From: Candidatus Freyarchaeum deiterrae
GTDB lineage: Archaea > Asgardarchaeota > Jordiarchaeia > Jordiarchaeales > Jordiarchaeaceae
Reading direction: 5' to 3'
Assembly: GCA_037305845.1 (NCBI GenBank)
Contig: CP147778.1
Span: forward strand, 1,536,001-1,600,000
Length of the DNA stretch: 64,000 nucleotides
Part shown: piece after piece, positions 8,068 through 62,203 of the stretch
How positions within the stretch are numbered: position 1 is the stretch's first letter
Layout: every line of letters begins with the position of its first letter
Notes under the pieces: model-generated
What the model saw: the letters and a program-made list of their open reading frames with translations, nothing else
Told to the model about the DNA's origin: nothing
The model's database searches: none
Position numbers and translations under genes: made by a program

Positions 8068-8210
8068 GGGTACGTCACCTAGCCAGGATTTCAGAAACCT
8101 GAAAGGGTGCCGACGTTTAAGGCATAAGCCCTCTAATCCTGGAGGTAAGCCGGAAAGCCAATAACTATTTGGTCCGGATTTCGAGAGTTCAAACCTCTCC
8201 GTACCCGCCA
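8068..8210 (+). tRNA. tRNA-Arg(UCU) with four BHB introns (20a/21: 8090-8103; 29/30: 8113-8127; 37/38: 8136-8147; 45/46: 8156-8179)
   Basis: Removing the four introns gives a 78-nt cloverleaf: GGGTACG TC ACCT AGCCAGGATA GGGT G CCGGC CCTCTAA GCCGG AATTC GAGAG TTCAAAC CTCTC CGTACCC G CCA; A20 Arg identity element; central helices CAGG/CCTG, GTGC/GCAT, CCTC/GAGG, CCGG/CCGG, each with 3-nt bulges. Confidence 0.9.
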
Positions 8211-8223
8211 ATTCCTCTTTTGT

Positions 8224-9210
8224 TCATTTTCGAAAGTGTTCGTAACCTTTGGGTTCTATTCTTTTTTCAGCTTGACTCGGTAGGCGTAGAACCACGTATT
8301 TTTCTTCTGTGACAGTTCCTATCGGATACAGAGTGCCGCCAACCATTTTCACCGCGTCCACGGCTCTATTCCACTTTGTTGAAGGAACTGTAACAACGAG
8401 CTCAAATTCTTCACCACCATACAAAGCTAGATCTAGGTAGTTAAGATCGTGGCTCTCTGAAAATGTTCGCACCTCTTTCGGAACAGGTATCGAATCGATA
8501 ATGAATCCAACCTCGCTCATTTTGGAAAGTTCGTATAGCGACCAGGCTAAACCGTCGCTGCTGTCTATACTGGATGTTGCGAGATTACGCTCAGATAGAA
8601 CTATTCCTTCCTTCATTCTAGCCTGAGGTTCGTACACGGCACGTAAACCCAGTTCCTTAGATTGAGGATCAGCGCTCAAGTTTTCAAGCAGTATCTTAAA
8701 CCCCATGGCAGTTAAGCCGAATGGACCAGTTACTGCAACAACATCCCCAGGCTTTGCTCCCTTGCGTGACACAACTTTATTCTGCCCAACAAGCCCAAAA
8801 ACAGCTCCTGAAACCACAAGATCAGAACACTCTCCAGTATCGCCTCCTAGGTAATATAAACCGTATTCTCTGCAGCCTGAGTTCAATCCTTTAACTAAAT
8901 CCCCCGCCTGATCAATAGTTGTACTAGGTGGGAAACCTAAGGAAAAAACGGCGCCAATGGGCTTCGCGCCCTTAGCGACAACATCGCTTACATTCATAAC
9001 AGCTGCCTTTCTCCCTGCATGCCAGTAAGACATACCCGGCGGAACGTCAGTACTACCCACAAGCATATCAGTTTTAATGATGAGAGCGTCATTCCCAAAA
9101 GGTATCCCTACAGCATCATCACCAAATGGCAAAACCTCACGTGGAAATCTATCAATTAAAGTGAAAAAGAAATCAATTAATCCACGCTCACCAATGTCAC
9201 TTACACTCAT
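8224..9210 (-). CDS. thiL: Thiamine-monophosphate kinase
   Basis: IGERGLI, GDDAV, NVSDVVAKGA, GGDT, DSSDGL, GGEEFELV, GYEHF. Confidence 0.95.
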   Translation of the reverse strand: MSVSDIGERGLIDFFFTLIDRFPREVLPFGDDAVGIPFGNDALIIKTDMLVGSTDVPPGMSYWHAGRKAAVMNVSDVVAKGAKPIGAVFSLGFPPSTTIDQAGDLVKGLNSGCREYGLYYLGGDTGECSDLVVSGAVFGLVGQNKVVSRKGAKPGDVVAVTGPFGLTAMGFKILLENLSADPQSKELGLRAVYEPQARMKEGIVLSERNLATSSIDSSDGLAWSLYELSKMSEVGFIIDSIPVPKEVRTFSESHDLNYLDLALYGGEEFELVVTVPSTKWNRAVDAVKMVGGTLYPIGTVTEEKYVVLRLPSQAEKRIEPKGYEHFRK

Positions 9211-9247
9211 AAAAACTACCATCCAGAACACTGTAAAAAAGATAAGT

Positions 9248-9409
9248 TGGAGCCCCGGACGGGGGTTTCAGAGTCACACTAAAAGTGCAAGCTCTATCGA
9301 ACCCGCGACCTACAACTCACTCGGACCACATTTGGAATCTGTGGTTGTACGAGGCTGCCGCTCTACCACTGAGCTTTCTCGCCTCTTACTTCACTGGAGG
9401 AACCGAGGC
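9248..9409 (-). tRNA. tRNA-Thr(CGU) with three BHB introns (8/9: 9376-9401; 37/38: 9318-9347; 59/60: 9265-9295)
   Basis: Spliced 75-nt cloverleaf: GCCTCGG TA GCTC AGTGGTA GAGC G GCAGC CTCGTAA GTTGT AGGTC GCGGG TTCGATC CCCGT CCGGGGC T CCA; helices CTCG/CGAG, CTCG/CGAG, TTCG/TGAA. Confidence 0.92.
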
Positions 9410-9580
9410 TCACCGAAGGCTCCAATATTCTTGAAATTCGAAACAGACCTTAATAATTTTTGCTATGCGTCAATACCATTTCAAAAGAATATTTTAACGC
9501 TTTTCCATGAACACAAGAAAGAACCTCAAATTCAGGAGACGCATCGTAAGTAAGTTAGAGTTTAAAAATAGTATTAGTGA

Positions 9581-9739
9581 TGGTGCTCCGGACGGGAGTT
9601 TCAAATTAAGTAATCACTTAGTTATTCAATAAAGTAATCACTTAATATTTTGAACCCGTGTCTAGGGATCGATTGGGCTGATGTACATGAGCCCCTTATG
9701 CTTGGCCCTTATCTTGTTTGGCCGCTACACTACCGGAGC
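9581..9739 (-). tRNA. tRNA-Glu(CUC) with three BHB introns (21/22: 9702-9717; 34/35: 9673-9688; 59/60: 9598-9648)
   Basis: Spliced 76-nt cloverleaf: GCTCCGG TA GTGT AGCGGCCAA GCAT A AGGGG CTCTCGA TCCCT AGAC ACGGG TTCAAAT CCCGT CCGGAGC A CCA; helices GGCC/GGCC, GGGC/GCCC, TTCA/TGAA. Confidence 0.9.
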
Positions 9740-9776
9740 GCTTTTATAGAATTTTTGAAAGCCATGCTTTTAAATT

Positions 9777-10256
9777 TTATTCAAAAGTCCAATATGTATC
9801 TCCCACGTAATGTAGATTCTTTACTGCGGGCCCTTTGCTGGAACTTTTTATGGTTCCTGCGTCCATGAGTGCGAGTCCCACAGATAGAGGTTTACCGTGT
9901 TTTTCGTCCGTAACCTCAACTAAGGAGAATTGCTTCACATTGTCGTCGACTCTAACAATTCCAGGAATCATGATGTCCGCTCCCTTAGTAACAAAACCCA
10001 CTGCCCCCATATCCACTGTAACTCTTGGCAGTTGTACAGCTCCATTTAAAATAGCTTTCAGACTCGGGATAAGCAAATCCACCATACGTATAAAATAAGG
10101 AACGCCGTTCACAAGATACAATTGAACATCGTCATTCATTATCCCGAACTCGACCTTATCCTTAATAGAAAAGGTCTCCCCTAAAGCTCCTTTGAGTTCT
10201 CCTTCCAATTTCTTAATGTCCCTATCACGCAGAAAATGACGATTCTTCAACTTCAC
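9777..10256 (-). CDS. PUA-domain RNA-binding protein (MCT-1/Tma20-like, DUF1947+PUA)
   Basis: VTVDMGAVGFVTKGADIMIPGI, GPAVKNLHYVGD; GTG start inferred. Confidence 0.9.
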   Translation of the reverse strand: MKLKNRHFLRDRDIKKLEGELKGALGETFSIKDKVEFGIMNDDVQLYLVNGVPYFIRMVDLLIPSLKAILNGAVQLPRVTVDMGAVGFVTKGADIMIPGIVRVDDNVKQFSLVEVTDEKHGKPLSVGLALMDAGTIKSSSKGPAVKNLHYVGDTYWTFE

Positions 10257-10599
10257 GCAAACCGCCTCAACACAACCTCTAAAACCAAGCCATTTCTCCA
10301 CCTTTTTACCGCATTTAAGTTATTTAAAAAAATCTGAAAATGATACCTACCTTAAAAAGAACAATTCGTAATATTTCAAAATTACGGAAAAAGAAATAAG
10401 CCCAAAAAACCTATTACGGAAAACACCGTCTTGAATAAGACGCATTTATAAAGAGACAACTCAAAAAAAATATAATATCCAAATAAGTACAGTAAAATAA
10501 AGTATATTGGAAGACAGAAATCCGATATACTTAAATACTCACTAAATTCCACAAAAGGATGCAATAGTATATTTTTTTGAAAAAGGAGAGAAAAAAGCA

Positions 10600-10845
10600 A
10601 TGAGCGAACCAAGCGTAACAAGACCTCTTGACCTGCTCAACAGATCATTAGAAGCGAAAGTACTCGTTAAACTAAAAGGAGGACGAGAACTAAGAGGCAA
10701 ACTCAAAGGATTCGACCTCCATATGAATCTCATACTAGATGAAGCAGAAGAGATATTAGACAAAGACACAAACAGACCCGTAGGAACCGTAATAGTAAGA
10801 GGAGACAACGTGATCCTACTCAGCCCCGCAATAAAAACAGGATAA
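10600..10845 (+). CDS. Sm-like (Lsm) protein
   Basis: RPLDLL, LKGGRELRGKLKGFDLHMNLIL, IVRGDNV; upstream of L37e as usual in archaea. Confidence 0.95.
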   Translation: MSEPSVTRPLDLLNRSLEAKVLVKLKGGRELRGKLKGFDLHMNLILDEAEEILDKDTNRPVGTVIVRGDNVILLSPAIKTG

Positions 10846-10884
10846 AAGAGCTAAAAAACAACCAAAAAGGGGGAAACAGAAAAA

Positions 10885-11073
10885 ATGACCAAAGGAACGC
10901 CAAGCAGGGGCAAAAAAAACAAAAAAACACACATAAGATGCCGTAGATGCGGAAAACACTCCTACAATGTCACGGAAAAATACTGCGCAGCCTGCGGATA
11001 CGGAAGATCAAAAAGAATGCGACGATACAGCTGGCAAACCAAGAAAAATGGCGGAAAAAACAGAGCATACTAA
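10885..11073 (+). CDS. rpl37e: 50S ribosomal protein L37e
   Basis: [27 protein letters not shown]. Confidence 0.97.
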
Positions 11074-11140
11074 AAACCAATCACCCGCGAATAGTGAATA
11101 CACTGACGGAAAATATAGAATAAAGTATAAAAAATATTGG

Positions 11141-11326
11141 GGGCCCCTAGCTCAGCCTGGTATGAGCGCCGCGTTACCCATACCTTATCACTAGAGGAAT
11201 GGGAGCGAAGGCAACTTGATACCAAAATCGCGGAGGCCGCGGGAAACCCCTAACAATAAGTAAGGGTTCGCGAATTCGAATCCGCTGAGAATCCTCTCAA
11301 CGGCGGAGCTCCCGCGGGGTCCACCA
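11141..11326 (+). tRNA. tRNA-Ala(GGC) with four BHB introns (33/34: 11176-11209; 37/38: 11214-11227; 53/54: 11244-11274; 59/60: 11281-11309)
   Basis: Spliced 78-nt cloverleaf: GGGCCCC TA GCTC AGCCTGGTAT GAGC G CCGCG TTGGCAT CGCGG AGGCC GCGGG TTCGAAT CCCGC GGGGTCC A CCA; G3:U70 Ala identity agrees with the reconstructed GGC anticodon. Confidence 0.92.
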
Positions 11327-11485
11327 ATTAACCTTACAAAACTAGTGTTTCCGCAAAATTAAAGCTCTAAAGAAAATTTTAGAGTCCGGCTTCGACCGCT
11401 GTTATTCTGGTTTCTTTTGCCCCTAAAAGTTAGCAATGCGAAAAATTTAATTATTTTAAAACAACTCCAATTTTAACACTACAAA

Positions 11486-11561
11486 GGGCGAGTAGTCTAG
11501 CGGTTATGACGTCGCCTTGACGTGGCGAAGGTCGCAGGTTCGAATCCTGCTTCGCCCACCA
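11486..11561 (+). tRNA. tRNA-Val(GAC), intronless
   Basis: GGGCGAG acceptor, TCGCC TTGACGT GGCGA anticodon arm, GGTTCGAATCC, encoded CCA. Confidence 0.97.
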
Positions 11562-11647
11562 ATCCAATTAGTTGTAAAAACAAAAGATTTAATAGGTTGA
11601 ATAAAAAACTTAATTTCTGCCGTCGTCCGAAATCTCCCAGAATAGGT

Positions 11648-11842
11648 GCCGTCGTAACTATTCACCAAGAAGAATAGCGACAAGCTTAGCCCGGGAGAGC
11701 GCCGGATACTGCCATAAGCATTGCAGAAGGCGAAACTGAAGATCCGGCTGTCGCTGGATCCTGCCAGAACCATTGACAGGAGGCGAATTCAAAGGGAATA
11801 GTGTTTGAAACACTATTCCTGAAACTCCGGCCGACGGCACCA
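11648..11842 (+). tRNA. tRNA-Phe(GAA) with four BHB introns (9/10: 11657-11683; 30/31: 11706-11734; 53/54: 11758-11787; 59/60: 11794-11825)
   Basis: Spliced 77-nt cloverleaf: GCCGTCG TA GCTT AGCCCGGGA GAGC G CCGGA CTGAAGA TCCGG CTGTC GCTGG TTCAAAT CCGGC CGACGGC A CCA; helices GTCG/CGAC, CGCC/GGCG, CGCT/GGCG, TTCA/TGAA. Confidence 0.93.
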
Positions 11843-12046
11843 AAATGTTTATTTATTAGTATAAATATTTATTTTAAATATATTAACGAGGGTGGAGGTT
11901 AGGTAATTATCTATTTCTGGGAAATTTGCATACCTTACTTATTTTCTGCCAAAAAGGGTCGAGGAAATTATATTTTTGAATTTTAAATGATTGGTGCTTT
12001 CTTGGATTGTTGTACTTTTTTGTGATGTGTTTTTTAAAAGTAGGCT

Positions 12047-12153
12047 TGGTGCGGCTGCCGGGATTTTCAGAAAAGTGATTTTTCACTTTTTATTTGAACC
12101 CGGGTAACAAGCTTGGAGGGCTTGTGTCCTAGACCAGTCTGGACTACAGCCGC
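12047..12153 (-). tRNA. tRNA-Gly(UCC) with one BHB intron at 59/60 (12064-12092)
   Basis: GCGGCTG/CAGCCGC A CCA; CAAGC CCTCCAA GCTTG anticodon arm; TTCA/TGAA helix with hairpin intron; 78 nt spliced. Confidence 0.92.
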
Positions 12154-12247
12154 ATTTTTTGATATTCTTGCGTTTTTCACTAGCACTTGAGTTTTTCTGG
12201 ATATCTGGTTTGGCCCGTTGTTTGGGGGTGTTTGGGTTTTTTTGTGT

Positions 12248-12604
12248 TTATGTTATGTTTAGGTATATGGTTCGCATTGGTGTTAGTAGTTTTTGTTCTT
12301 TTGGTGTTTCTATTTTCATTTGTAGTCCGCCGAATGAGGCTAGATATACGTATTTGTTTTCGGATTTTGTTTTTCGGTGTACTTTTCCTTCTAGGGCGAT
12401 TTTGGTGTTTTTTGTTTCTAGGGGTTGGTCGCTGATTTGGATGGTAACTTTATTTTTTTCTTCTAGTGGAATTAGTTCTTTTGGGAGTTCTATTGTGATT
12501 TTTAGTTGTTCTTCTTCGGATGTTAGGTGGTATTCTTGTACTTTGGTTGATTCTTCTATTGGTTCTATTTTTGTGAGTGTTAATTCGGTTTTGAGGTCTG
12601 CCAT
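12248..12604 (-). CDS. rpoG: DNA-directed RNA polymerase subunit G (Rpo8/Rpb8 homolog)
   Basis: 118 aa from MADLKTEL; C-terminal YLASFGGLQMKI matches the Rpb8 SFGGL motif; the upstream part of the tracked ORF is a frame overlap. Confidence 0.8.
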   Translation of the reverse strand: MADLKTELTLTKIEPIEESTKVQEYHLTSEEEQLKITIELPKELIPLEEKNKVTIQISDQPLETKNTKIALEGKVHRKTKSENKYVYLASFGGLQMKIETPKEQKLLTPMRTIYLNIT

Positions 12605-12699
12605 TTGTTGTATCGCCTCTTGGGCTTGCTTCTTTCTGAGATATACTAATTGGATTAAGTTTTTCCCTTTTGGGGTGTTATTTTTGATTGTCTGGGTGG

Positions 12700-13041
12700 C
12701 TATGTTGGTACAAAGGCTACGCCGAGTGCTAGGAGTATGCCGCCCAGTACTATGGCTACGGTCCACCAGTGGAAGTAGTGCTTCCAAGCCTGGGGGGTGT
12801 CTTTGATGAGTTTGCCTGTGGCCCAGGATACTCCCCAGAAGTAAATCGCCATTATCATCATTGCTGAGGTTTGATAGTCTATGGTTACGTCTGAGAGTAG
12901 TATCACTGCTGCGAAGACCACTATTAAGGTGACTAAAGATCCCCAGCCTGTCCATTCCAGTATTGTTTCGAAGCGTCTTTGCTGGAAGTTTTCTTCGTAG
13001 TCATATTTTTTGTCTTTGGTTTCTAATTCTTTTTTGGGCAT
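12700..13041 (-). CDS. Small membrane protein (3 predicted TM segments)
   Basis: Hydrophobic segments; ATG at 13041 after GAGG. Confidence 0.65.
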   Translation of the reverse strand: MPKKELETKDKKYDYEENFQQRRFETILEWTGWGSLVTLIVVFAAVILLSDVTIDYQTSAMMIMAIYFWGVSWATGKLIKDTPQAWKHYFHWWTVAIVLGGILLALGVAFVPT

Positions 13042-13164
13042 TGCTATCCCTCGATATTGAATGGGGAGTGGTATTAAAATTTTTCTTCTCATTGAGCTTT
13101 TATTATTTTAATTTTGTTGTTAGTTTTCTGTGTTTTTGTTCTAATAATAGTGTTGTGATTTGTG

Positions 13165-14391
13165 TTAGGGGGTTGTAATTATTTTTATGCGGGTACCGAT
13201 TATTGCGTCTATTTTTTGTTCTAGTTTTTGGATATAGGTGTCTATTCTGTTTATGCTTTTTTGGTAGTCTGTTTCAACTCTATAGATTGCAGTATTTATG
13301 TCTTCTTTTTTTTGGTCTAGTTCTTCTACTGCGGTTTCGAGGTGTTTTTGTTTTTGTGTTAGTCCTTTCTCGTGTATTTGGATTTTAAGCGAGTCTCTTT
13401 CTGAGAGTAGTTTCAAGTATTTATTTTTTAGGGGGGTTAGTGCATCATTCTCGCAGATTTTGCTGATTTGGTCCTTTGCTTTTTTATTCCTGCTGCCTTT
13501 GAGTCCGAGAGTCTCCTCTGCTAAAGCATCATTTAACTGTGTTAGTAGAGACTTGATTTGGGAGCAATTATCGTCCTCTGATAGGAATGCAGCTAGGGGG
13601 GTGCCTAGATAGTTTCTTAATACTCTTAGGTTCTCGGCACTGAGGTGAACCGTGTCGTCGCTAACTAGCCTGTCTAGTTTTCGGAAGGGCTTCTCAAAAA
13701 AGCGTAGCTCTCGCAGTATGTTGTCTTCGACTGATTTTAATTCTTTTTCCACATCTGTGATGTCTCTTACCAAAGTTTTCTCTTTGAGTTCCTTCAGTTC
13801 ACCATGCTTTTCTTTCTTAGCTTCCTCAAATTTGTTTAGACTTTTTGACAACTCTTTTTTCTGTTTAATGAGATTATTTGCAATTTTTTGTTCCTTTCCG
13901 ATTTCTTCCACCGCATCAGAAATTGATTCGTAATCTTTAATTTTTGGATATCTGTTAATTAGTATTTCTTGCAGGTCTTGGTACTCTTTTCCTAACTTTC
14001 TCAGGTAAAGGTCTATTTCCGCGATTTCTGTCTTATACCAAGGTTTCATTTTTGGAACCCATCTTTGTCCATATTCGCCGATTAACTTTAGGGTTCTTTC
14101 TAAATCGTTTTTTAAAGTTTCTAAATTATTATATGTTATTTCGTGCGGGACTGAAAATTTTTCAACAGCGGGGGCAGTTTTCTCTACGAAACGGGCGGCG
14201 GATTTTGTGGCGAGTTCACTTGCTCCTCTCTCTTCTTTGTTTTCCAAGTCTTGGAGGGCGTCCTTCAGATCACTTATGAGCTGGCTAACTCTGTCGCAAG
14301 ATTTCTGTCCATCTCGCCTAAATGATTCCAATTTTTTCCCAAAATTAATCTCTAACCACTCAGATAAATCCTCTAATTGCACATCTTCCAT
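13165..14391 (-). CDS. Coiled-coil hypothetical protein
   Basis: 408-aa ORF rich in E/K/L heptads; GGAGGAG ribosome-binding site. Confidence 0.75.
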   Translation of the reverse strand: MEDVQLEDLSEWLEINFGKKLESFRRDGQKSCDRVSQLISDLKDALQDLENKEERGASELATKSAARFVEKTAPAVEKFSVPHEITYNNLETLKNDLERTLKLIGEYGQRWVPKMKPWYKTEIAEIDLYLRKLGKEYQDLQEILINRYPKIKDYESISDAVEEIGKEQKIANNLIKQKKELSKSLNKFEEAKKEKHGELKELKEKTLVRDITDVEKELKSVEDNILRELRFFEKPFRKLDRLVSDDTVHLSAENLRVLRNYLGTPLAAFLSEDDNCSQIKSLLTQLNDALAEETLGLKGSRNKKAKDQISKICENDALTPLKNKYLKLLSERDSLKIQIHEKGLTQKQKHLETAVEELDQKKEDINTAIYRVETDYQKSINRIDTYIQKLEQKIDAIIGTRIKIITTP

Positions 14392-14638
14392 TGGAAAACT
14401 CCTCCGGTCGCCCGTATATCACGTAGTTATTCGGATTAATGACAGTAATGATAAGATGTATCTACCTTATTAAGGAAATCATTTTGGCATTGATATTTGT
14501 TTCATAAATTTAACATCGGTTATCATTAACTAGATTAATAAGTATTTTTATTTTTTATTTAGCTTTGTTAAACCAAAACTTTAAAAAAATAATTAAACGC
14601 CAAAAAAATAGGTAGTCCTACTCATCTGAGAATTATGT

Positions 14639-15430: not shown

Positions 15431-15556
15431 AGTTCATACCTTCAACGTTTTGTCGAAGGGTTAGGGGAGAGAAGAGCGTTTTTAGGGCGAAAATTAATTT
15501 TTATTAATAAGTTCGATTTATCAGACTTACAATTTTTAGTCGAAAAAATAATAGTT

Positions 15557-23358: not shown

Positions 23359-23687
23359 CTCTCCTTTTTGGAAAATTTTACCCCATATTAATTTATCACT
23401 ATAATTTATTACTTTTTTTACTCTTATTCTTCAAACCCGATTCATCAATTATTTACCAAATTTTTCATAGTAATGCGATAACAGTTTATTAACATTGAAC
23501 AAAAAGAAAGAGATATAACTCGTCTGTGAAAACCAGAAAAGAAAAATAGAAGGGTATATCCTCTGCATCAAAGGCGCGAATGCGCTGCTTTATCCTCCCC
23601 TGGGCATCTCAACTAGTTATATTCTTTCAATGGCTGTTAGTTACCTAGGCTCAGTATTCGTGTAAGTCTGCCGGTTTGACAGCCCTA

Positions 23688-23870
23688 TTAACTCATGGCA
23701 AGGTCTTCTGCTTTTACGGTCTTCCGACCATTTTTCTGAGCGTTCGCAATGCCAGTATCTATAATTTTTTCCACATATTTGTTAATAACATCGAAAGCGT
23801 CGGAAGCGCAAAGCATTCCTTTTTTGTTTACTTCTTCTTTTACAGCTTTTTTCACAACGAAATCCGCCAT
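23688..23870 (-). CDS. Histone-fold protein
   Basis: 60 aa; C-terminal A.KNGRKTVKAEDL histone-fold signature; GGTGA RBS. Confidence 0.85.
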   Translation of the reverse strand: MADFVVKKAVKEEVNKKGMLCASDAFDVINKYVEKIIDTGIANAQKNGRKTVKAEDLAMS

Positions 23871-50141: not shown

Positions 50142-50912
50142 TTGGTTGAAATAGCAGTAGTAACAAGCAACATGCGGCTATATTATAAAGTTGTTAAGGA
50201 GCTTAAGGATGAAGGTATTGCCTTCATTAGCATGAAGCCCGGCGAGGTTATTCCCAAAGAAATAAAATGTGTCATAACGTCTAGTAGTGAGAGAGATTTG
50301 GTTACGCATACGAACATTTTAATTGTTGATAGTGAAGATTCCTCTCCCCTCATACAAAAATTGCGCCTTGTTTTAACTGAGGTTGAACCTCCTATTACTA
50401 TGGTGACCGTCGGTGTTGACCCGGGAAAAACTTATGGTATAGCAGTGCTTGTTAATGAAAATGTGCTTGATACTTACAAAGCATTTTCTTCAAAAAAAAC
50501 CGCTGAAATTATCAAAAATATATTGTTAACCTTTCCTGCGGCGAGAAAAATTATCCGTATTGGAACAGGTGTTCCACTTTACTATAATCAACTTTTAGAG
50601 CTTCTAACTGATGTGAATGCCGAGTTGGAGCTTGTGAATGAATTTGAAACTTCTAGTGGCCCGCGAGCAATAAAAGATACGAATGCGGCTTTAGCAATCG
50701 CAAAGAAAAAAGGATTAAAACCACAGGAATATGAAAAAGTACACAGAATAAAGAGGGGTACAATTAAGCACATTCAAAAAATGAGTCGTCAAGCATCCCA
50801 TGGCAAAATAACAATAAATGAGTCTAGTGCAAGAAAGGTTGCGGTAGGGGAAATTAGCCTTGACCTCGCTATCGCGTCACAAAAAAAGAAAGCTGCGAGG
50901 AAAGATTCGTGA
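50142..50912 (+). CDS. RNase H-like fold conserved protein
   Basis: VGVDPGKTYGIAV, RIGTG, VNEFETS. Confidence 0.7.
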   Translation: MVEIAVVTSNMRLYYKVVKELKDEGIAFISMKPGEVIPKEIKCVITSSSERDLVTHTNILIVDSEDSSPLIQKLRLVLTEVEPPITMVTVGVDPGKTYGIAVLVNENVLDTYKAFSSKKTAEIIKNILLTFPAARKIIRIGTGVPLYYNQLLELLTDVNAELELVNEFETSSGPRAIKDTNAALAIAKKKGLKPQEYEKVHRIKRGTIKHIQKMSRQASHGKITINESSARKVAVGEISLDLAIASQKKKAARKDS

Positions 50913-52195
50913 AAAAGGTAGTTGAGGCGAGACCAAATCAAACATTGCTTGTAAAAGGCCCGGCAAAAATAGATATTGTTAAAGGAGAGATTTCAATACT
51001 GGAGAACAATTTGGGGGAGGGAGAGAGTATAGTTATCACCAGAGGAAAAGCACTCCCCATTAAGGCTGTTTCGGAAACAGTATTGGATAGTTACATTGAT
51101 AATGATGACGCCGTCGAGCCCTTAGAGGAGCAATTTCCAAAAGAATGGATCGGTGTTACTAACCTTTTTGAGAATTTGGAATTACCCACACTAATACCCA
51201 TACTGGGGAGTGTAGATTCCGGTAAAACATCACTAACAACTTATTTAGCAAATAATGCTTTTAAAAAAGGTTACAGAGTTGCAATTGTTGATGCGGATGT
51301 TGGGCAAAGTAATATTGGCCAACCATGCTTCGTGAGTATGGGATTTATGGAGAAAACAGTTTCCATGCTTTCCGAGGTTAAATTGAAGGGGACTTACTTT
51401 ATTGGTTCAAATACTCCGTCTCGGTTACTTCATAGAACAATCACAGGAGTAGCAGTAATGGTAAAAAAGGCATTAGACAATAATGCAGAAATAGTTTTTG
51501 TAGACACGGCGGGTTGGGTTTATGGGAGAGGGGCGAGAGAACTTGAGGCATCCCTAATCTCAATGTTACAACCTAGAATTCTAATTGCGTTACAAAGAGG
51601 GAATGAAATAGAGCATCTACTAAGCCCATTCAATGAGTCTTTAGTTAATATTGTTCGACTCCCAGCCCCAAGAACTTATAAAAGAAGTAGAGAGAATAGA
51701 AAATTCCTTAGAGAAATCTCATATCAAAAAGGCCTGCAAGGAGGGCGAGACATAACTTTAAGCTTGGAGCAAATTAACTTGAGGTATACTCTTCTGGGTT
51801 CCGGCTCTCAAGTCAAACCCGAAAAATTCGAAGAAATAAAACGGATTTTAGGTTGTCTTCCCATTTATATTGAAGAATCCACAGATATTTTATACATTGT
51901 TCTGCCAGATTACGAAATTAGAATAAATAAAGACATAACAGAGTATTTAGAGGATCAGTTATATAAAACAGAAGTGTATCTCACCCAAAAAAGAGATTTC
52001 GAAAATGTCCTAGTTGCTTTCCAAGATGAAAACAATGAACCCCTCAACATAGGTATAATTAAAAGAATAGATTTTGAAAAACGTGAAATTACTTTCTATA
52101 CTTCTGCTGACAAAGAAAAAATAAGATCAGCACAATTTGGATTACTGAAGGTCAGCGAAGATGGAGAAGAACTAGGATATACGAAGATACTTTGA
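50909..52195 (+). CDS. Clp1/Grc3-family polynucleotide 5'-kinase
   Basis: GSVDSGKT, DADVGQ, VDTAGWV, R.RENRKFLRE. Confidence 0.9.
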   Translation: MKKVVEARPNQTLLVKGPAKIDIVKGEISILENNLGEGESIVITRGKALPIKAVSETVLDSYIDNDDAVEPLEEQFPKEWIGVTNLFENLELPTLIPILGSVDSGKTSLTTYLANNAFKKGYRVAIVDADVGQSNIGQPCFVSMGFMEKTVSMLSEVKLKGTYFIGSNTPSRLLHRTITGVAVMVKKALDNNAEIVFVDTAGWVYGRGARELEASLISMLQPRILIALQRGNEIEHLLSPFNESLVNIVRLPAPRTYKRSRENRKFLREISYQKGLQGGRDITLSLEQINLRYTLLGSGSQVKPEKFEEIKRILGCLPIYIEESTDILYIVLPDYEIRINKDITEYLEDQLYKTEVYLTQKRDFENVLVAFQDENNEPLNIGIIKRIDFEKREITFYTSADKEKIRSAQFGLLKVSEDGEELGYTKIL

Positions 52196-52259: not shown

Positions 52260-53469
52260 TTACTTTCTTCCAATCCATCCTATCTCTTTTATAGTTTCGC
52301 CGGTTTCAATAACTTCAAAAGCCTTTTTCAATACATCTTTCTGTTCTTGTACGGTGACATCTCTGCCACCTAGACCTGCTATAAATTCCAGCACAGGCGG
52401 CCTCTTATCCTCTGTATATAGCGCAGCTTTAATCTCAGATGCTGATGCACCGCCTTTTCCTGCTGAAAGGTTTCTGTCTATTACTGAAATAGCTTTAACG
52501 CGACTAGCAATTCTGCGTATCTCCTCTTCAGGAAAAGGTCTAAAAGTCCTCAGCTTCACTGATCCTGCTCTGTAGCCTTCCTCTCTTAACTCGTCGACAG
52601 CTACCATAGCTTGGTCAGCAAGAGAACCCATACAGAAAATCACCGCGTCTGCATCTTGACACCGATATTCTTCGACCAAATCACCGTGATATCTTCCAAA
52701 TTTCTTTTTGAAATCAGAGGCAACCTCCACGATTTTTCTTTTAGCGTTTTCATGTGCTAAATGTATAAGATACTTGAACTCGTAAAACCAATCATCAGGG
52801 TTCTGTAGATTTCCATAAGTAATGGGGTTATCTATGTCTATACCTATATGCGTTGGATTATATGGAGGAATGAAAGCGTCAACCTCTTCTTGTTCTGGAA
52901 TCACGACTGGTTGAGAGGTATGACTAATAGTGAATCCCTCATAACAAACCATCATTGGTAGAAGAATCTCTTGATCTTCTGCAATTTTAAATGCTTGTAT
53001 AATTGAATCGAACGCGTCCTGATGATTGGCACAATAAACTTGCATCCAGCCAGTATCTCTTTGAGAAACCGAATCGTTGTGATCCGACCAGATGTTCCAA
53101 GGTGGTCCTAAAGCTCTATTAACTACAGCCATAACAATAGGCAAACGCGAAGACGCAGCCCAGTGAACCATCTCATGCATATAGATTAAACCGTGGGCAG
53201 AAGTAGCGGTAAACGTTCTAACCCCAGCGAGAGAAGCGCCGACGCAAGCTGCTAAAGCAGAATGCTCAGATTCGACACGCACAAATTTGGCATTCAATTC
53301 GCCACCATCAACAAGGTCCGACAACTTCTCTACAATACCAGTCTGCGGCGTTATTATCCCCGAACAAGAATCTTGCTCAGTTTGGATAAGCCGCTATAAC
53401 TGCGGGTCTCGATAAAGCAGCAGCGTAAGCCGCAGCATAATTTCCGGTTGTTATCACAGTTTTTGCCAT
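52260..53469 (-). CDS. porA: 2-oxoacid:ferredoxin oxidoreductase alpha subunit, split by a BHB intron: join(53382-53469, 52260-53353), 393 aa
   Basis: Exon 1 MAKTVITTGNYAAAYAAALSRPAVIAAYP; exon 2 continues ITPQTGIVEKL...ESEHSA, TATSAHG, GLGGRD; ATG overlaps the upstream gene's TAA (TAATG). Confidence 0.9.
53354..53381 (-). other. 28-nt BHB intron in porA mRNA
   Basis: Sense strand: gcggctt ATCC AA|A ctgagcaaga t tcttgttcgg GGAT AA|T aacgccgc, a full helix-bulge-helix-bulge-helix; cutting after the 2nd nt of each bulge restores TAT CCA ATA ACG CCG. Confidence 0.85.
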
Positions 53470-55560: not shown

Positions 55561-55779
55561 AACAAGTAGTTATTTTTTAGAGCAGCCTCTAACTTTGCCA
55601 CCTTTTTTGAGGTATATTTATTAGTAACATATATTCCAAATTTTATTATCCCAAAATTAACGGAATAGGCGAATCTATCTGCCGAATCAAAATATTAACT
55701 TATCGTACTCTTTATAGGATGTTTTACTCCAAATAATTTGGAGGCTCCTATAGCAGTAGGGTACTTTCAGAGGTGTACT

Positions 55780-56055
55780 GTGTTGTCTGAGGAAAATACA
55801 ATTTTCATTGGAAGTAAAGGTGTTATGGCTTATGTTTTAGCCTGCGTTACGCAGTTAAACAAGGGCAATAAGGACATTGTGTTAAAAGCAAGAGGTAGAG
55901 CTATTAGTCGAGCTGTTGATGTTGCAGAAATTTTGCGAACCAGATTCGTAAGCGATCTCAAGGTAAAGGAAATTAAAATAAGCACAGAGCAAATCAAAGA
56001 GTCCGAGGGAGGCACCGCGAACGTTTCTGCTATAGAGATCAGTCTGGGCAAGTAA
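55780..56055 (+). CDS. albA: DNA/RNA-binding protein Alba
   Basis: [33 protein letters not shown]; GAGGTG RBS. Confidence 0.96.
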
Positions 56056-56266
56056 AGAATTCAAATGCATTGACTAGGATTCAAGTATTTTTATTTCCAA
56101 CTGCTCTCATGATTGAATCAAGAGGTATATGGTCAGAGCAGCCAGTATAGAGATTTGAAAAAGTATAGGAAAACCTGCATGAAGAGCAGTTTTTTGTTTT
56201 CTTTTTTGTTAAGGAAGAAAAATCAAATAGGGAATTGTAGGTGCTGACTTTTCGTTTGTGGTCGGC

Positions 56267-57190
56267 TTAAGTTAAATTCTGTAATTTAATTAATTCTTCC
56301 CATTTTTTATCAACGTAGTCCTGCATCTCTTGTATTAATGATTCTTGACGTTTTGGCTTGAATAAGTGACTGAACTTACCCTGGTATTTTAGGTACTCTT
56401 CAACCGGCTTTTTCTTAACAATATCCTTCGTTATTTTGTACTTTCCGTTTTCAACCTCGTAAAGTGGCCAGTAACGGGTAAGTACAGCTTCTCTAGCTAT
56501 CTCTATTGTTAATTCTGATTCAGTTCTCCATCCTCTAGGACAGGGAGCCAAAATTATTATGAATGAGGGGCCTTCAACCGCAACCGCTTTACGAACTTTT
56601 TTTATCAAGTCTAAGGGGTAGGCCGGGTTCGCAGTAGCGGCGTAGGGGATGTCATGCGCAACCACAATTTTCATAATATCCTTCTGAAATCGAACTTTAC
56701 CTGGGGTTACTTTACCCGTAGGGCTGGTCGTTGTCCACCCAAACTTTGGTGTAGCACCGCTCTGTTGAATACCGGTGTTCATGTACGCTTCATTAGTATA
56801 ACAAATGTACGTAAAATTATGACCCCGCTCCAACGCACCAGACAAAGCCTGCAAACCGATATCATATGTGCCGCCGTCTCCAGCTATAGCGATTACACGA
56901 TTATTCGTCTTCGGAATTCTGCCTTTATGTTGTAGAACTTTAAGTCCCACTTCCACGCCGGATGCCGCCGCGGCGGTGCACTCGAAAGCGGTATGTATCC
57001 AAGGGACGCTCCATGCCGTGTAGGGGTAGGGCGTAGTTGCTACTTCAACGCAGCTTGTAGCGTTAACTATTATGGGGGGTTTTTCAAGAGCCGTGAATAC
57101 TTGTCTTAGTGTTATTGCAGCTCCACAACCCGAACACAATCTATGTCCTGGTGTAAAATATTCTTGTGTAGGTAAACTTTTTAGGGACAT
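56267..57190 (-). CDS. porB: Pyruvate/2-ketoisovalerate oxidoreductase beta subunit
   Basis: GHRLCSGCG, GDGG, NEAYMNTG, PCPRGW. Confidence 0.93.
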   Translation of the reverse strand: MSLKSLPTQEYFTPGHRLCSGCGAAITLRQVFTALEKPPIIVNATSCVEVATTPYPYTAWSVPWIHTAFECTAAAASGVEVGLKVLQHKGRIPKTNNRVIAIAGDGGTYDIGLQALSGALERGHNFTYICYTNEAYMNTGIQQSGATPKFGWTTTSPTGKVTPGKVRFQKDIMKIVVAHDIPYAATANPAYPLDLIKKVRKAVAVEGPSFIIILAPCPRGWRTESELTIEIAREAVLTRYWPLYEVENGKYKITKDIVKKKPVEEYLKYQGKFSHLFKPKRQESLIQEMQDYVDKKWEELIKLQNLT

Positions 57191-57195
57191 AGTTT

Positions 57196-58407
57196 TTACG
57201 CTCCATCATAAGTTACGTTTATACATCCTGGGCCTCTGCAGCCCACGATTTTGTAGTTCTCTTCAATCTTGTCTTTTTTGGCAACTTCGAGAAGTATTTC
57301 GGAAACTTTTTCGAAATGTTCGGTTCTTGTGTCTCTCCCGCCAAGGCCTGTGGGGAACCCCATAATATGGGGGCGGTCTTTGAGCTCATATAATGCGGAT
57401 CTTGCTTCCATACTCAGTGCGCCACCCATTGATCCGAAACTAATGTTTCGATCTATTACTCCAACAGCCTTTATGTTTTTGAGTGATTTTTGTAAGTCCT
57501 CGACTGGGAAGGGGCGGAATACTCGAAGTTTAAGGAGGCCTATCTTTTTCCCCTCTTTTCGCAGCTTATTAACTGCTTCTTGGGCGGTTCCTGCTAGTGA
57601 TCCTATGGTTAATAATGCGACTTCTGCGTCCTCCATTTTGTATTGAGAAATGACCTCGTAATTTGTGTCGAATCTGTTGTTGAAGTCGCTGAATACTTTT
57701 TTGATGACTTTTAGAGAGTTTTGTGTGGCTACTTCTTGTTGGACTTTGATTTCGGGGTAGTATTCGGGCCCGCCGACGCATCCAACTGTTACTGGGTTAT
57801 CTACATCTACTGAGGTATCTGCTTCTCGGAGGGGTAGAAAGTCGTCGATATCTTCTTGATCCAGAAGTTCTAAACCCTCTGTGGCGTGGCTTACGATGAA
57901 GCCGTCGTGGCAGGACATTACCGGTAGCAGGGTGCCTTTGTCTTCCGCTATTCTGTATGCCTGTATGATGGCGTGGTATGATTCTTGGGCGTTCTGGTTA
58001 TAGATTTGTATCCAGCCTGAGTCTCTCACTCCCATGGAGTCGCTCATGTCGTTCCAGATGCTCAGAGGGCTGTTCAATGCTCTGTTGGATACTCCCATAA
58101 CTATTGGTAGTCTAAAAGAAGAGGCGATAAACATCATCTCAAACATCAGAGCAATTCCTTGAGAGGCGGAGGCGGTGAATACTCTTGCTCCAGTCAGAGA
58201 GGCGCCTATACATGCTGCCATTGCTGAATGTTCGGATTCCGCGGATATAAGCTCGGCGTCGATTTCACCATTTGCATAATACTGAGCTAATTCTTCAACG
58301 ATCTGGGTTTGGGGAGTTATGGGGTACATGGCGATTACGTCCGGTCTGCATTGTTTTACCGAATGGGCTACAGCTTCATTTCCAGTTAATGCGGTTAGTT
58401 TTGCCAT
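57196..58407 (-). CDS. porA: Pyruvate/2-ketoisovalerate oxidoreductase alpha subunit (uninterrupted)
   Basis: TGNEAVA, YPITPQT, ESEHSA, GLGGRD. Confidence 0.95.
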   Translation of the reverse strand: MAKLTALTGNEAVAHSVKQCRPDVIAMYPITPQTQIVEELAQYYANGEIDAELISAESEHSAMAACIGASLTGARVFTASASQGIALMFEMMFIASSFRLPIVMGVSNRALNSPLSIWNDMSDSMGVRDSGWIQIYNQNAQESYHAIIQAYRIAEDKGTLLPVMSCHDGFIVSHATEGLELLDQEDIDDFLPLREADTSVDVDNPVTVGCVGGPEYYPEIKVQQEVATQNSLKVIKKVFSDFNNRFDTNYEVISQYKMEDAEVALLTIGSLAGTAQEAVNKLRKEGKKIGLLKLRVFRPFPVEDLQKSLKNIKAVGVIDRNISFGSMGGALSMEARSALYELKDRPHIMGFPTGLGGRDTRTEHFEKVSEILLEVAKKDKIEENYKIVGCRGPGCINVTYDGA

Positions 58408-58410
58408 TTT

Positions 58411-58701
58411 TTATTCTTCCTCCATTTCTATCGCTTTCACAGGGCATTCTTGGCAACATATTCCACAACCTTTGCAGTAAAAATAATTAATTTTGACCTT
58501 GTTTTCCTCTCTTTCTATGGCTCCTTCAGGGCAGTAAATCCAGCATAGTAGACAGTTGTTGCATTTGTTTTCTTTTAGTACAGGTTTTTTTCCTTCTCTC
58601 CAGTCGCCGGTTTTGTATTCTCTGGCATTACCTGACTCTGTGATGTACCCACCTTTGGGAATCTCGTTCCAAGATTTTAGTTTCTTTTCAGATTCGCTCA
58701 A
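58411..58701 (-). CDS. porD: Oxidoreductase delta subunit (ferredoxin-like)
   Basis: TGDWR, two CxxCxxxCP motifs. Confidence 0.93.
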   Translation of the reverse strand: MSESEKKLKSWNEIPKGGYITESGNAREYKTGDWREGKKPVLKENKCNNCLLCWIYCPEGAIEREENKVKINYFYCKGCGICCQECPVKAIEMEEE

Positions 58702-59255
58702 CCCATCTTTACCTCCTCATACGCCCTTTTTATCGCATTTATGTTTTTTTCCGCCAAGTCTTGTCTGAATCTTTCTTTGGTCACCTCAATGATGGTGTTC
58801 AAACTTACGATTCCTGTAGCTTTTGCTAAGGCTCCTAGGATGGAAGTATTGGTTATTGAATTGCCTAGGGTTTCCACTGCGATTTTTGTTGCGTTAATTG
58901 TTGCAACCTTGTTATTTACTTTCAACTCGGATTTTATTTGAGGGGGATTTTTATCGGTGTTAACGATTATGATTCCGTCTTTCTTCAGACCCTCTGTGAC
59001 TTTTTCAACTTTTAGTAGTGTGGGATCCAGTACAACAACGATATCAGGGTCGTAGATCTGCGATCTGTTAAGTATCGGCTCATCACTTACTTTGGTGAAT
59101 GCCTTTATTGGTGCCCCTTTTCTCTCTGCTCCAAAGCTCGGAAAACCTTGAGCCATTTTTCCTTCCTTTATAGCAGCTTCTGTAACCAGTCTACTTGCAG
59201 TGACTACTCCTTGTCCTCCTCTACCATGGAATCTAATTTTAATAACATCGCCCAA
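58698..59255 (-). CDS. porG: Oxidoreductase gamma subunit
   Basis: HGRGGQG, FGAERKGAP, ILGALAKATG. Confidence 0.93.
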   Translation of the reverse strand: MGDVIKIRFHGRGGQGVVTASRLVTEAAIKEGKMAQGFPSFGAERKGAPIKAFTKVSDEPILNRSQIYDPDIVVVLDPTLLKVEKVTEGLKKDGIIIVNTDKNPPQIKSELKVNNKVATINATKIAVETLGNSITNTSILGALAKATGIVSLNTIIEVTKERFRQDLAEKNINAIKRAYEEVKMG

Positions 59256-59491
59256 AGGGTTTCCTCCAACTTTTTTAGAATAATTTTCTTTGGTGTTATT
59301 CCCCTATGATTGTTAACTTCGAAGAGGTCTTTTGTTTATAATGAATTCAGATTATCGGGGGTATTAAATCGTTATGCTAAAAATGTGGGTTATGCATAGA
59401 ACAGTTTACGCTCACTTTTTTTAAGTATTACGCTTTTCATCATCTTTTTGGAGCATCTACTAGTGCGATTTTTATTTATTTAAATACCTTT

Positions 59492-61336
59492 TTATAAAAC
59501 AAAGAGCAAAAATTGAAGTAGGATGTTCAGTAAAGCCGCTGAGACTAATATTAAAAGTGATTTCTTCGCGGTTGAAACAGATTTTAATATTTGAGAAGTC
59601 AGAATTTCCATCTGTTTTTCGCCAACGATTTTGATTTTCTCCACATTTTTTATACTGTAAGCTACTTTCACTGGCTGAACTTTTACCAGTGCTTCTTTTA
59701 CCATGTTTGTGATGGTTTTTATCAGTTTTTTATGGTCCCCAACCAACCCTACAGGGTTATACCCCCTGGGATTTAGAGATACAGCATTAACAATGTGGGT
59801 ATCGCTGGTCATTGCTTCCGCTTCATCAACGCCTGTTTTTTTAACTACTTCAAGTATTTCTTCCCTTAACCCAGGAATCATATTATTACCATCGATTATA
59901 ATGTACGCAGTTTTTTGCCCTTCAACTTCAACCACATAAACTGTGGTGCCTGTAGGCCCTATACCCTCCCATTTATCAGAATCGCTGGGGGCTGATTGAA
60001 CAGCGTAAACTTTGAATTTTGTGCTCATTTTGGATTTTGCCTGTTTAACCGCCATTTTCGCAGCGTAAATCATCTTTTTTGCAGTTTCGGTGTTTGATGA
60101 AACAGCGTCCACGGTTTCGCCGCCACAATTATGGGCATCGATTAGAAAGGCGTCCTTTATCCCTTCACTTAAAGCCGCCTCTCTTATCTTTTCTCCTAAA
60201 TCTGGAGTTATATCATCAAAACTCATGGGTGCTAATGTAGCTACCAGCAGAGCAAGATTCCCAAAAATTTGACAGCCCATTTTCACTTCATCTTTTTCAT
60301 ATCTAACAAATTGACTGGCTTCCGATACAAAACTAGTTTGCTCTAAAGAACTCTCAACTGTTCTTAAAACCTTTTCAATTTCTTTAGCCGCGACCAAATT
60401 TTGTCCGTGTGTTGAAGGGCCGTGTGCTACGGAAGCAACAGCCCCCGTTTTTTTCTCTATCTGCTTTGCCACAATATATGGCATTTCGCTACTTCCGACA
60501 GTTTTGAATGGGCCTGGATGAATGTTTGGAACCACCAATACCCCCCTCAAGGCCTCCAAATCTTTGAATAATAATGTAAGCACTGGGAGCGACGTGGTTT
60601 CTCCAATCTTTTCAAAATTTTCTTCCATCAAATCTGATTTGTTTTCTATCCAGTCTAAAAGAAAGCCGTAAAAAAATCTTAATCCTTTTACCCCTAAACC
60701 CTTGAGTATAGGCCTGTTCACCAACCAAAGGTATACTAGGGTAGCCACACCAAATACAGCTGAAGTAATTGCAAACATTATTGCAATCTGGACTATTTCA
60801 GGAATTGAATAAGAAGGAAACATTTCAAAAAGTAAAAATGCAACTACGCAAATCACAGGCTGTGAAAAAGCCGCCGCTAGCGGTCTAAGAATACTAAACT
60901 CGGTCATTACGTAGAGTACCAAGAGCCTTACCATGAATATAAAAGAGACCCCGAAAATAAACGCTACAGAAACTATGATAGAGATATTTGTGAACCGAAA
61001 TAGTATAGCCCCAATGAAATAAGCTATTCCTAAAAAGAGTACGCATATAAAGGATAATGCAGTTAACCTCCGACTATCCCAAACACTTCTATTACCCCTC
61101 ATTAGAGAAAGCGTTATTGGAATCGATAGAATGGTAGGAATAAATAGTATAGAAGCCCCTTCAATGATCCCCACTAGTACATTACTTTCAAGCGGCAGAG
61201 CAAGGTAAACAATAACCCTAGCAATAACTCCGATAATTAGGGATGTCACTAAAGAAAATATCAACAATTTTTTCATCGAAGGCAATTGAAATAGCCACTT
61301 ATATAATGAAGCAGTTTGTTCTATAGAAGTACTCAT
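59492..61336 (-). CDS. DUF2070-family membrane protein
   Basis: N-terminal TMs; HPGPF, HGPSTH, DAHN, DGNNM, TSDTH. Confidence 0.85.
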   Translation of the reverse strand: MSTSIEQTASLYKWLFQLPSMKKLLIFSLVTSLIIGVIARVIVYLALPLESNVLVGIIEGASILFIPTILSIPITLSLMRGNRSVWDSRRLTALSFICVLFLGIAYFIGAILFRFTNISIIVSVAFIFGVSFIFMVRLLVLYVMTEFSILRPLAAAFSQPVICVVAFLLFEMFPSYSIPEIVQIAIMFAITSAVFGVATLVYLWLVNRPILKGLGVKGLRFFYGFLLDWIENKSDLMEENFEKIGETTSLPVLTLLFKDLEALRGVLVVPNIHPGPFKTVGSSEMPYIVAKQIEKKTGAVASVAHGPSTHGQNLVAAKEIEKVLRTVESSLEQTSFVSEASQFVRYEKDEVKMGCQIFGNLALLVATLAPMSFDDITPDLGEKIREAALSEGIKDAFLIDAHNCGGETVDAVSSNTETAKKMIYAAKMAVKQAKSKMSTKFKVYAVQSAPSDSDKWEGIGPTGTTVYVVEVEGQKTAYIIIDGNNMIPGLREEILEVVKKTGVDEAEAMTSDTHIVNAVSLNPRGYNPVGLVGDHKKLIKTITNMVKEALVKVQPVKVAYSIKNVEKIKIVGEKQMEILTSQILKSVSTAKKSLLILVSAALLNILLQFLLFVL

Positions 61337-61630
61337 AGACTACCCTTCCAAAGTTAATAATGAACGGGGGCGCAACCTTTTTTCTTTAGCCATTGAAGTC
61401 GGGGCATTATTAAATTTTGCCCAGACAATTCCTCTATATAAACAATGACCTCAATTGTTAGAAGTTCAAAAAGCTATGCACTCTAATAGTATAAAAGTTA
61501 ACTTTAGCCTCCTGCTCAAGAAGGTTTCAAAACTTTGAGGTAATTTTAATTAAATAGTTACTTTTATGAACCAAATTAGTTAAAAAAACATTAATTTACC
61601 AAGATGAAATATTAAATTGGAGGGATTTTA

Positions 61631-62059
61631 ATAGCCGGTTATCGTTTTCTGGGGCACACAGCAGATGTTAAAGTAGAAGCCTATGGTAAAACAATCAATG
61701 AAGCCTTTCAAGAAGCAGCCCTGGCGCTAACCGAAGTAATGACAGACACATCGAAAATACACCCAATAATAAAGCGAAAAATAGAAATTGAAGCCGAAGA
61801 TCCACAATCCTTACTCTACGAATGGCTAGAGGAATTCATTTATCTATTTGATTCCCAGGGACTAATTTTCTCAAAGTTTAACGTCGAAAACATCCAACAA
61901 ACAGAAGGAAAATTAAAACTAAACGGAGAAGCCGCCGGAGAAGAATACGATGAAGAGAAACACCCACAAAGAACCGCAATAAAAGCAGCAACATACCATG
62001 AAATGAAAATCAAACAATCCCCAAAAAAAACAATTTTAGAATTTGTATTGGACATTTAA
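61631..62059 (+). CDS. Archease (RtcB tRNA-ligase cofactor), probable ATA start
   Basis: In-frame N-terminal GYRFLGHTADVKVEAYG upstream of the tracked ORF; LLYEWLEE, IKAATYH, VLDI. Confidence 0.88.
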   Translation: MAGYRFLGHTADVKVEAYGKTINEAFQEAALALTEVMTDTSKIHPIIKRKIEIEAEDPQSLLYEWLEEFIYLFDSQGLIFSKFNVENIQQTEGKLKLNGEAAGEEYDEEKHPQRTAIKAATYHEMKIKQSPKKTILEFVLDI

Positions 62060-62106
62060 TTTATGCCAAATCCATGCTTTTGAAACTCAAATTTACAAGA
62101 AAGATA

Positions 62107-62203
62107 TGGCGCAGGGAGAGGGATTCGAACCCCCGCATCCCTTACGGGATACTGGCTCTCAAGGCCTACGCTTGAAGGAGATTCCTCATTCAATCAGCGC
62201 CGT
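62107..62203 (-). tRNA. 3' portion (nt ~21-76) of tRNA-Ser(UGA) with a 29/30 BHB intron (62166-62194); nt 1-20 absent
   Basis: ACGGC G CTGGC CTTGAGA GCCAG, long variable arm ATCCC GTAA GGGAT, GGGGG TTCGAAT CCCTC, TCCCTGC G CCA; no matching GCAGGG(A/G) acceptor strand upstream. Confidence 0.8.

Follow-up and report, generated by a model that had tools for sequence, protein, structure and literature searches.

In the Asgard archaeon Candidatus Freyarchaeum deiterrae, a single protein-only splicing system would serve both transfer RNAs (tRNAs) and messenger RNAs (mRNAs), the latter including transcripts of at least 22 protein genes, a reading to which we assign a probability of roughly 0.88; mRNA splicing by tRNA-splicing enzymes looks routine in this organism. 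The analysis started from a window of 64,000 nucleotides (nt), bases 1,536,001–1,600,000 of the single 3,576,204-bp contig that forms the genome (G000); coordinates marked G000 count along the whole contig and all others along the window. An earlier note on this window had described tRNA genes crowded with bulge-helix-bulge (BHB) introns together with a single mRNA intron, and had supposed that the organism might be Asgard. It is, and its tRNA coordinates agree with the SRVP_Freyarchaeota supplement table of PMC11291895. The saturation of its tRNAs with introns is already known from that paper and from a preprint (bioRxiv 10.64898/2026.10.13.758758); what is new is the mRNA introns, at a scale beyond the papers searched.

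Briefly, both strands of the genome were scanned for BHB motifs that break the frame if retained and, once removed, bring two coding segments together, and identical filters were applied to a mirror-image geometry as a control. At lengths of 26–35 nt and energies ≤ −0.3 kcal/mol per nt, the true geometry gave 17 candidates against 0 for the mirror; with four pairs and energy ≤ −0.25 the counts were 15 and 1. In-frame, stop-free inserts showed no excess (122 vs 113 in the mirror control). After curation, 24 frame-breaking BHB introns in 22 genes were retained, a lower bound that makes the entry of introns into coding genes larger than the one case first proposed. Their first bases are as follows.

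G000:987065, HD-domain gene
G000:1125569, alba
G000:1145015, mvhD
G000:1152345, hdrC
G000:1452824, rtcB
G000:1472189, gatE
G000:1483446, cbf5
G000:1500558, Cys-rich gene
G000:1589381, porA
G000:1619887, nadE
G000:1863944, radical SAM gene
G000:1873166, tyrS
G000:1877066, 1876927 and ~1876393 (191 nt), ahcY
G000:2191720, ychF
G000:2203742, kae1
G000:2244134, pimt
G000:2285374, PHP-like gene
G000:2434719, unnamed gene
G000:2458220, selD-like gene
G000:2494680, flavin oxidoreductase gene (oye)
G000:2580004, hypD
G000:2636190, leuC-like gene

Nineteen of the first 21 mRNA introns are 28–34 nt long and 17 of the 21 end in AA, while tRNA and mRNA introns together span 12–191 nt. Pfam profiles continue over the tested junctions, to the residue or within three (AIRS 1–48 then 49–111; NAD_synthase to 136 then 138; PCMT to 59 then 61; TsaD to 61 then 64), and removal of the three ahcY introns yields a complete AhcY. 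Because these introns break the frame, the full protein needs the splice, and public annotations call the intron-bearing protein genes truncated. The rtcB and ychF introns have a relaxed helix with three of four pairs. Most mRNA introns have only 0–2 exon-exon pairs outside the helix, so a relaxed enzyme would be needed. At the 30-nt alba intron, gene callers decode TAG as Gln and so read on through it (L179, L195), a result that might pass for an alternative genetic code. All 24 mRNA introns fall within G000:0.98–2.64 Mb, and nearly all tRNA genes within 1.11–1.89 Mb. A candidate at G000:1958627 was dropped for want of motif support; rps26e and one RLP gene, not recovered by the strict local scan, and a 59-nt candidate that fits a BHB with its frame unconfirmed were not counted.

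The single mRNA intron of the earlier note, which gave no coordinates for it, is located in porA and is a canonical BHB intron.

53382–53469, minus strand: porA exon 1, 29 codons plus 1 base, with the gene start at 53469
53354–53381, minus strand: porA mRNA intron, BHB, 28 nt, with helix ATCC/GGAT, two 3-nt bulges, a 9-bp inner stem and a 7-bp exon stem
52260–53353, minus strand: porA exon 2 (2-oxoacid:ferredoxin oxidoreductase alpha subunit), with a POR_N match from profile position 17

Retention of this insert causes a frameshift and an in-frame TGA, and its removal restores YPITPQ at the YP-ITPQ break and gives a protein of 393 amino acids (aa), intact homologues having 392–394 aa. Together with its flanks the insert has a folding energy of −24.6 kcal/mol, which relative to 200 shuffles is z = −4.7. 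An intron that always brings a stop, is 28 or 33 nt long and has the ATCC/GGAT helix occupies the same base in six relatives (four congeners, one further assembly and one Logan contig), and the pairing is kept in 99% of 120 cells in six sequences, compared to 40–53% when the register is slid. The porA orthologues that could be read in other Asgard families carry YPITP intact and no intron. Furthermore, the codon differences in exon 1, summed over every pair among seven sequences, are 207 synonymous vs 27 non-synonymous, a bias from which it follows that it is translated and selected. From such sequence evidence we infer that the window's own porA intron is spliced. Immediately downstream, a Clp1-like RNA kinase gene (50909–52195) lies tail to tail with porA.

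Intron-free forms of two other genes were found among assembled contigs. When alba exon 2 was used as the query of a protein search, full-length Alba carrying the predicted junction came up. The alba contigs of SRR28530378 and 379 align to that of SRR28530383 (L193 vs L196) without a single mismatch in 13,185 columns, the one difference being a 30-nt gap; in a second species, runs 378 and 379 differ by this gap and by three mismatches. For mvhD, runs 379 and 383 (L203 vs L204) align over 6,805 columns with no mismatch and one 31-nt gap. The three intron-free junctions allow registers −2 to 0, 0 to 2 and −2 to 1, and register 0, that of the BHB rule, alone fits all of them. These contigs are best read as spliced complementary DNA. 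They might instead be DNA of subpopulations that have lost the introns precisely, in which case splicing would still be real and the contigs would say nothing on RNA processing: they are long (13 kb) and run across divergent genes, as is typical of DNA, and exact loss or absence of introns does occur between congeners. Such an origin would, however, require that one strain had lost the introns of both genes exactly while staying identical across the rest of 13 kb and 6.8 kb, and that the alba intron had also been lost in a second species of the same run series. The run 379 porA contig keeps its intron, as expected if the assembler follows the more abundant form. We therefore consider it unlikely.

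Several points weigh against a shared splicing system. The mirror-image control is approximate, and the final list of mRNA introns was curated partly from remembered motifs. The intron-free contigs are Logan assemblies from relatives and not from G000, and we infer their RNA origin; exact scans of JGI contigs for the spliced porA and alba junctions gave 0 matches, and the porA contigs of runs 379 and 382 keep the intron. The porA intron alignment contains one-sided changes only, with no two-sided compensatory change. Searches for database homologues found no full-length porA of this genus (every homologue at ≥86% identity is N-terminally truncated or in the wrong frame), and porA has intact paralogues in the genome. 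These paralogues, like the public annotation of the genes as truncated, would suit a view in which the interruptions of protein genes reflect pseudogenes or faulty assembly and the tRNA introns alone are real. Yet these inserts recur at the identical base in separately assembled genomes of several species, with the sequence changed and the pairing kept; both exons are under purifying selection; and the genome's only rtcB match is itself interrupted, as are kae1, tyrS, gatE and cbf5. We regard this view as almost certainly wrong.

The position of the inserts brings in another mechanism, in which the ribosome hops or frameshifts over a hairpin, as in gene 60 of phage T4, and the RNA is never cut. 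Known bypass signals have a stop codon and a hairpin, and most of the mRNA inserts place just these directly after exon 1. The porA take-off and landing codons do not match, however; the insert lengths represent all three frames; the BHB geometry and the A-rich 3′ bulge are those of the tRNA introns; and contigs without exactly the insert exist. Bypass is accordingly a very improbable account of these genes, and splicing of both RNA classes by one system is the reading we retain.

The tRNA side of this system is densely represented near the start of the window.

8068–8210, plus strand: tRNA-Arg(TCT), introns 8090–8103 (20a/21), 8113–8127 (29/30), 8136–8147 (37/38) and 8156–8179 (45/46)
9248–9409, minus strand: tRNA-Thr(CGT), introns 9376–9401 (8/9), 9318–9347 (37/38) and 9265–9295 (59/60)
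9581–9739, minus strand: tRNA-Glu(CTC), introns 9702–9717 (21/22), 9673–9688 (34/35) and 9598–9648 (59/60)
11141–11326, plus strand: tRNA-Ala(GGC), introns 11176–11209 (33/34), 11214–11227 (37/38), 11244–11274 (53/54) and 11281–11309 (59/60)
11486–11561, plus strand: tRNA-Val(GAC), no intron
11648–11842, plus strand: tRNA-Phe(GAA), introns 11657–11683 (9/10), 11706–11734 (30/31), 11758–11787 (53/54) and 11794–11825 (59/60)
12047–12153, minus strand: tRNA-Gly(TCC), intron 12064–12092 (59/60)
62107–62203, minus strand: tRNA-Ser(TGA), 3′ remnant bordering an integrated element of ~20 kb, intron 62166–62194 (29/30)

Standard tools recover only Val-GAC and one mis-called Leu from the window, and an Rfam search of it gave a single tRNA match and no group I or group II intron. 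When the introns are cut out after the second bulge base, ARAGORN folds six cloverleaves of 75–78 nt (Arg-TCT, Thr-CGT, Glu-CTC, Ala-GGC, Phe-GAA and Gly-TCC). The 20 tRNA introns claimed at 12 named positions in seven of eight loci (4+3+3+4+4+1+1) are thus borne out, including the low share at the canonical 37/38 site (three of 20, against five at 59/60). Two of the note's statements hold in part: the uniform 4-bp helix is present in 19 of the 20 introns (arbitrary cut pairs reach four of four pairs ~2% of the time), with Ala 33/34 pairing at three of four, and seven of the eight loci are whole, the Ser locus being a partial copy. Intronless copies of the same isoacceptors, which formed part of the note's refuting condition, were not found for the six window tRNAs among 33 tRNA-like loci or the published 38, both lists being incomplete.

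Comparison with the 2024 table (PMC11291895) showed identical intron coordinates for Arg, Thr and Gly. Ala-GGC and Phe-GAA, with eight introns, are missing from that table, Glu-TTC (G000:1790195) is likewise omitted from the published list, and Glu-CTC is typed there as Met-CAT with an intron (at 9673–9688) that has no BHB helix. The Glu-CTC reading is kept in congeners, in which CTC and TCGA are constant and the intron between them varies. Relatives without single introns confirm the boundaries of four others: congeners G003 and G005 have neither the Ala 53/54 and 59/60 introns nor the Phe 59/60 intron, and G002 has no Thr 37/38 intron. Conversely, tRNA-Val(GAC) of G003 has a 59/60 intron, unlike that of this genome. 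Two cases of copying are visible at the sequence level: the Phe 30/31 and 53/54 introns are identical at 25 of 30 positions, and 23 of 33 positions agree between the Val 59/60 intron of G003 and the Phe 59/60 intron of this genome. Arg-TCT (8131) and Gly-TCC (12118) encode C33 and not U33; since Gly-TCC of G003 and G005 and Arg-TCT of G006 have T33, this change may be recent. The 16S rRNA gene (L003, G000:1804896–1806517), 1622 nt long, has inserts of ~90 nt near model position 245 and ~30 nt near the 3′ end, both of which admit BHB registers and are probably ribosomal RNA introns.

The genome encodes the enzymes that such a system would use, in answer to the note's proposed check of EndA architecture and RtcB. 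The catalytic paralogue of a two-subunit EndA, the subunits being encoded at G000:1921033 and 1733162, can be aligned with the catalytic subunit of Aeropyrum (E = 9e-43), has the Tyr-His-Lys triad and has an extra loop like the Crenarchaea-specific loop; the second paralogue is without the His and looks like the structural subunit. Loops of this kind have been linked to broad specificity, so that of the proposed broad-specificity endonuclease the two-subunit enzyme with its loop is present and the breadth is suggested by the loop. RtcB has one match in the genome, in the intron-interrupted rtcB. In the proposed mechanism, EndA would bind the 4-bp helix in which the final bases of the exon pair with the 3′ end of the intron, and would cut each 3-nt bulge behind its second base. 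The exons would be joined by RtcB together with archease. This assignment of cutting and joining is a probable one. Up to four introns would be removed per tRNA gene, at times in forced order, as in tRNA-Ala, where the 37/38 helix spans the 33/34 junction and splicing order is therefore forced. On mRNAs the same enzymes would remove mostly 28–34-nt hairpin introns that lie within conserved active-site motifs and break the frame, and that would be gained and lost over time.

The active intron gain proposed in the earlier note is seen as turnover, that is, as presence and absence among congeners of tRNA and mRNA introns alike. The kae1 intron occurs in the genus (28–29 nt), the sister family (13–14 nt) and G011, is absent in G012–G014 and has varying helix partners; in G011, a complete 1.4-Mb genome of another family (L077), it is a 28-nt BHB intron at this genome's base, so the site is shared beyond the order. 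The selD-like intron (30–34 nt) is found across the order, the porA and alba introns in the genus and the nadE intron in two of five species, and the ychF and oye introns in this species only among those searched. The unnamed-gene intron is present in the sister family and two species and absent in four congeners, and that of mvhD is present in this species and close relatives and absent in four other congeners. Both gain and loss are needed for this distribution, and their directions, viewed without a tree, are not proven. The persistence of the introns presumably reflects the small cost of one that is spliced and the intolerance of such motifs to any loss that is not exact to the base.

It is doubtful, by contrast, that the mRNA introns form a regulatory circuit in which EndA/RtcB capacity gates chosen genes and rtcB feeds back on itself, an arrangement that would be compatible with a single protein-only system. 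The hosts rtcB, cbf5, kae1, gatE and tyrS all act in RNA maturation or charging, the selD and kae1 introns are kept across families, and intron-free assemblies occur for alba and mvhD and not for porA. The hosts as a whole are, however, functionally mixed (porA, ahcY, nadE, leuC, hdrC, hypD), and the patchy introns of ychF, oye, nadE, mvhD and the unnamed gene, confined to one species or missing from several congeners, are as expected of near-neutral passengers.

The suggestion that introns spilled over from tRNAs holds for their presence in coding genes and is not shown for their origin: no convincing donor of any mRNA intron was found among the tRNA introns or elsewhere in the genome, the best match being 17 nt of the cbf5 intron in unrelated sequence. 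Other classes of intron were considered and rejected. Group I and group II self-splicing introns have a ribozyme core of hundreds of bases, for which these introns are too short, and a mobile BHB intron with a homing endonuclease does not agree with lengths of 12–191 nt and the lack of a LAGLIDADG_3 match in G000, in a search limited to that endonuclease family. Nor is the porA intron of the cbf5 type at a catalytic Asp codon; it is a different insertion that would work alike.

The Ser piece lacks its first ~20 bases, with no 5′ acceptor strand and no D stem, and an intact tRNA-Ser(TGA) lies 20 kb off at G000:1618246–1618383. Between them is the integrated element (62107–64000 to G000:1618383), which encodes a HEAT-repeat protein, a 1696-aa protein, a HerA-like ATPase, an SNF2 helicase, a DUF1156 protein from a split gene and a DUF499 protein, and is not at this site in four congeners. 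In congeners a whole tRNA-Ser(TGA) adjoins the archease gene. We read the piece as an integration remnant. A split, trans-spliced tRNA was rejected, given no complementary partner beside a 5′ half, the intact gene 20 kb away and the intact congeners. The neighbouring gene is as follows.

61616–62059, plus strand: archease (RtcB cofactor), complete Pfam match

There is no ATG, GTG or TTG before the Pfam match at its N-terminus, and the start is likely a non-standard codon such as ATA; as a host of an mRNA intron it was rejected, its reading frame being open. A small histone-like open reading frame, under the 80-aa cut-off, lies at 23640–23870 on the minus strand.

Short frame-shifting mRNA introns removed without a spliceosome are also known in eukaryotes: in XBP1/HAC1 splicing, Ire1 cuts at two stem-loops rather than a BHB, on one regulated target, and a tRNA ligase joins the ends. 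The likeness is in the type of intron and of splicing, and homology of the introns is not claimed. The bearing on eukaryotic introns that the earlier note foresaw extends to protein-only splicing of the tRNA and XBP1/HAC1 types; because the chemistry is another, there is none on the ancestry of spliceosomal introns. The closest archaeal parallel is the cbf5 pre-mRNA intron of Desulfurococcales and Sulfolobales (Watanabe 2002; Yokobori 2009, PMC2738675), likewise a short BHB intron without an open reading frame (16–44 nt there) that lies in a catalytic motif, is cleaved by a two-subunit EndA between bulge bases two and three, and has been both gained and lost; the cbf5 intron of this genome interrupts the same Asp codon, between its first and second base. 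That system concerns one gene, whereas here at least 22 unrelated genes of an Asgard archaeon are involved, with ongoing turnover within one genus. Among the papers searched, cbf5 is the sole case reported within a coding sequence. The 2009 paper (PMC2738675) states that introns had been predicted in other genes and lacked confirmation, and according to a 2020 paper (PMC7714728) the cbf5 intron was the only other mRNA example beside that of HVO_1309 in Haloferax volcanii, in which EndA excises a BHB intron from the 5′ untranslated region of the mRNA, as shown by circular RNA and in vitro work. Unlike HVO_1309, the present introns lie in coding sequence, are many and go with a different EndA type.

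On the tRNA side, work on Thermoproteales (Sugahara 2008; Fujishima 2010) describes, as here, multiple non-canonical BHB introns, a two-subunit EndA and some copying between sites; up to four introns per gene are found here, copying between tRNA types is 1.5% here vs 28% there, and cbf5 of Thermoproteales is intron-free. For Freyarchaeia/Atabeyarchaeia, and for this same genome, introns at many non-canonical positions are described in the consulted passages of PMC11291895 (Valentin-Alvarado 2024), which give 92–95% of tRNAs as interrupted and treat tRNA introns only, and in the Goswami 2026 preprint (bioRxiv 10.64898/2026.10.13.758758), which reports a tRNA intron census together with recurrent gains, an enrichment of the BHB and a pair of EndA paralogues, the route by which tRNA introns arrive not being found. 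The word 'mRNA' is absent from that preprint, and literature searches, with most subscription papers outside the searched set, found no publication describing BHB introns in protein-coding genes of Asgard archaea.

Taken by itself, the tRNA part would hold little interest, being already published. The mRNA introns would make this a complete Asgard genome with at least 22 spliced coding sequences, including core translation and energy genes, where reviews up to 2020 give one for the archaea. Public databases label such genes as truncated, which affects how genes are called, how completeness is estimated and how metabolism is reconstructed in these lineages. Tentatively, and more as a possibility than an expectation, EndA/RtcB splicing in Freyarchaeia might be a general, gene-specific layer of control on dozens of mRNAs, with differing efficiencies and a ligase dependent on its own product; if that were true, prokaryotes would already have coped with many frame-breaking introns without a nucleus. 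Ca. Freyarchaeum deiterrae offers a living test of a standing question on the origin of eukaryotes, the handling of many frame-breaking introns in a cell that presumably translates while transcribing.

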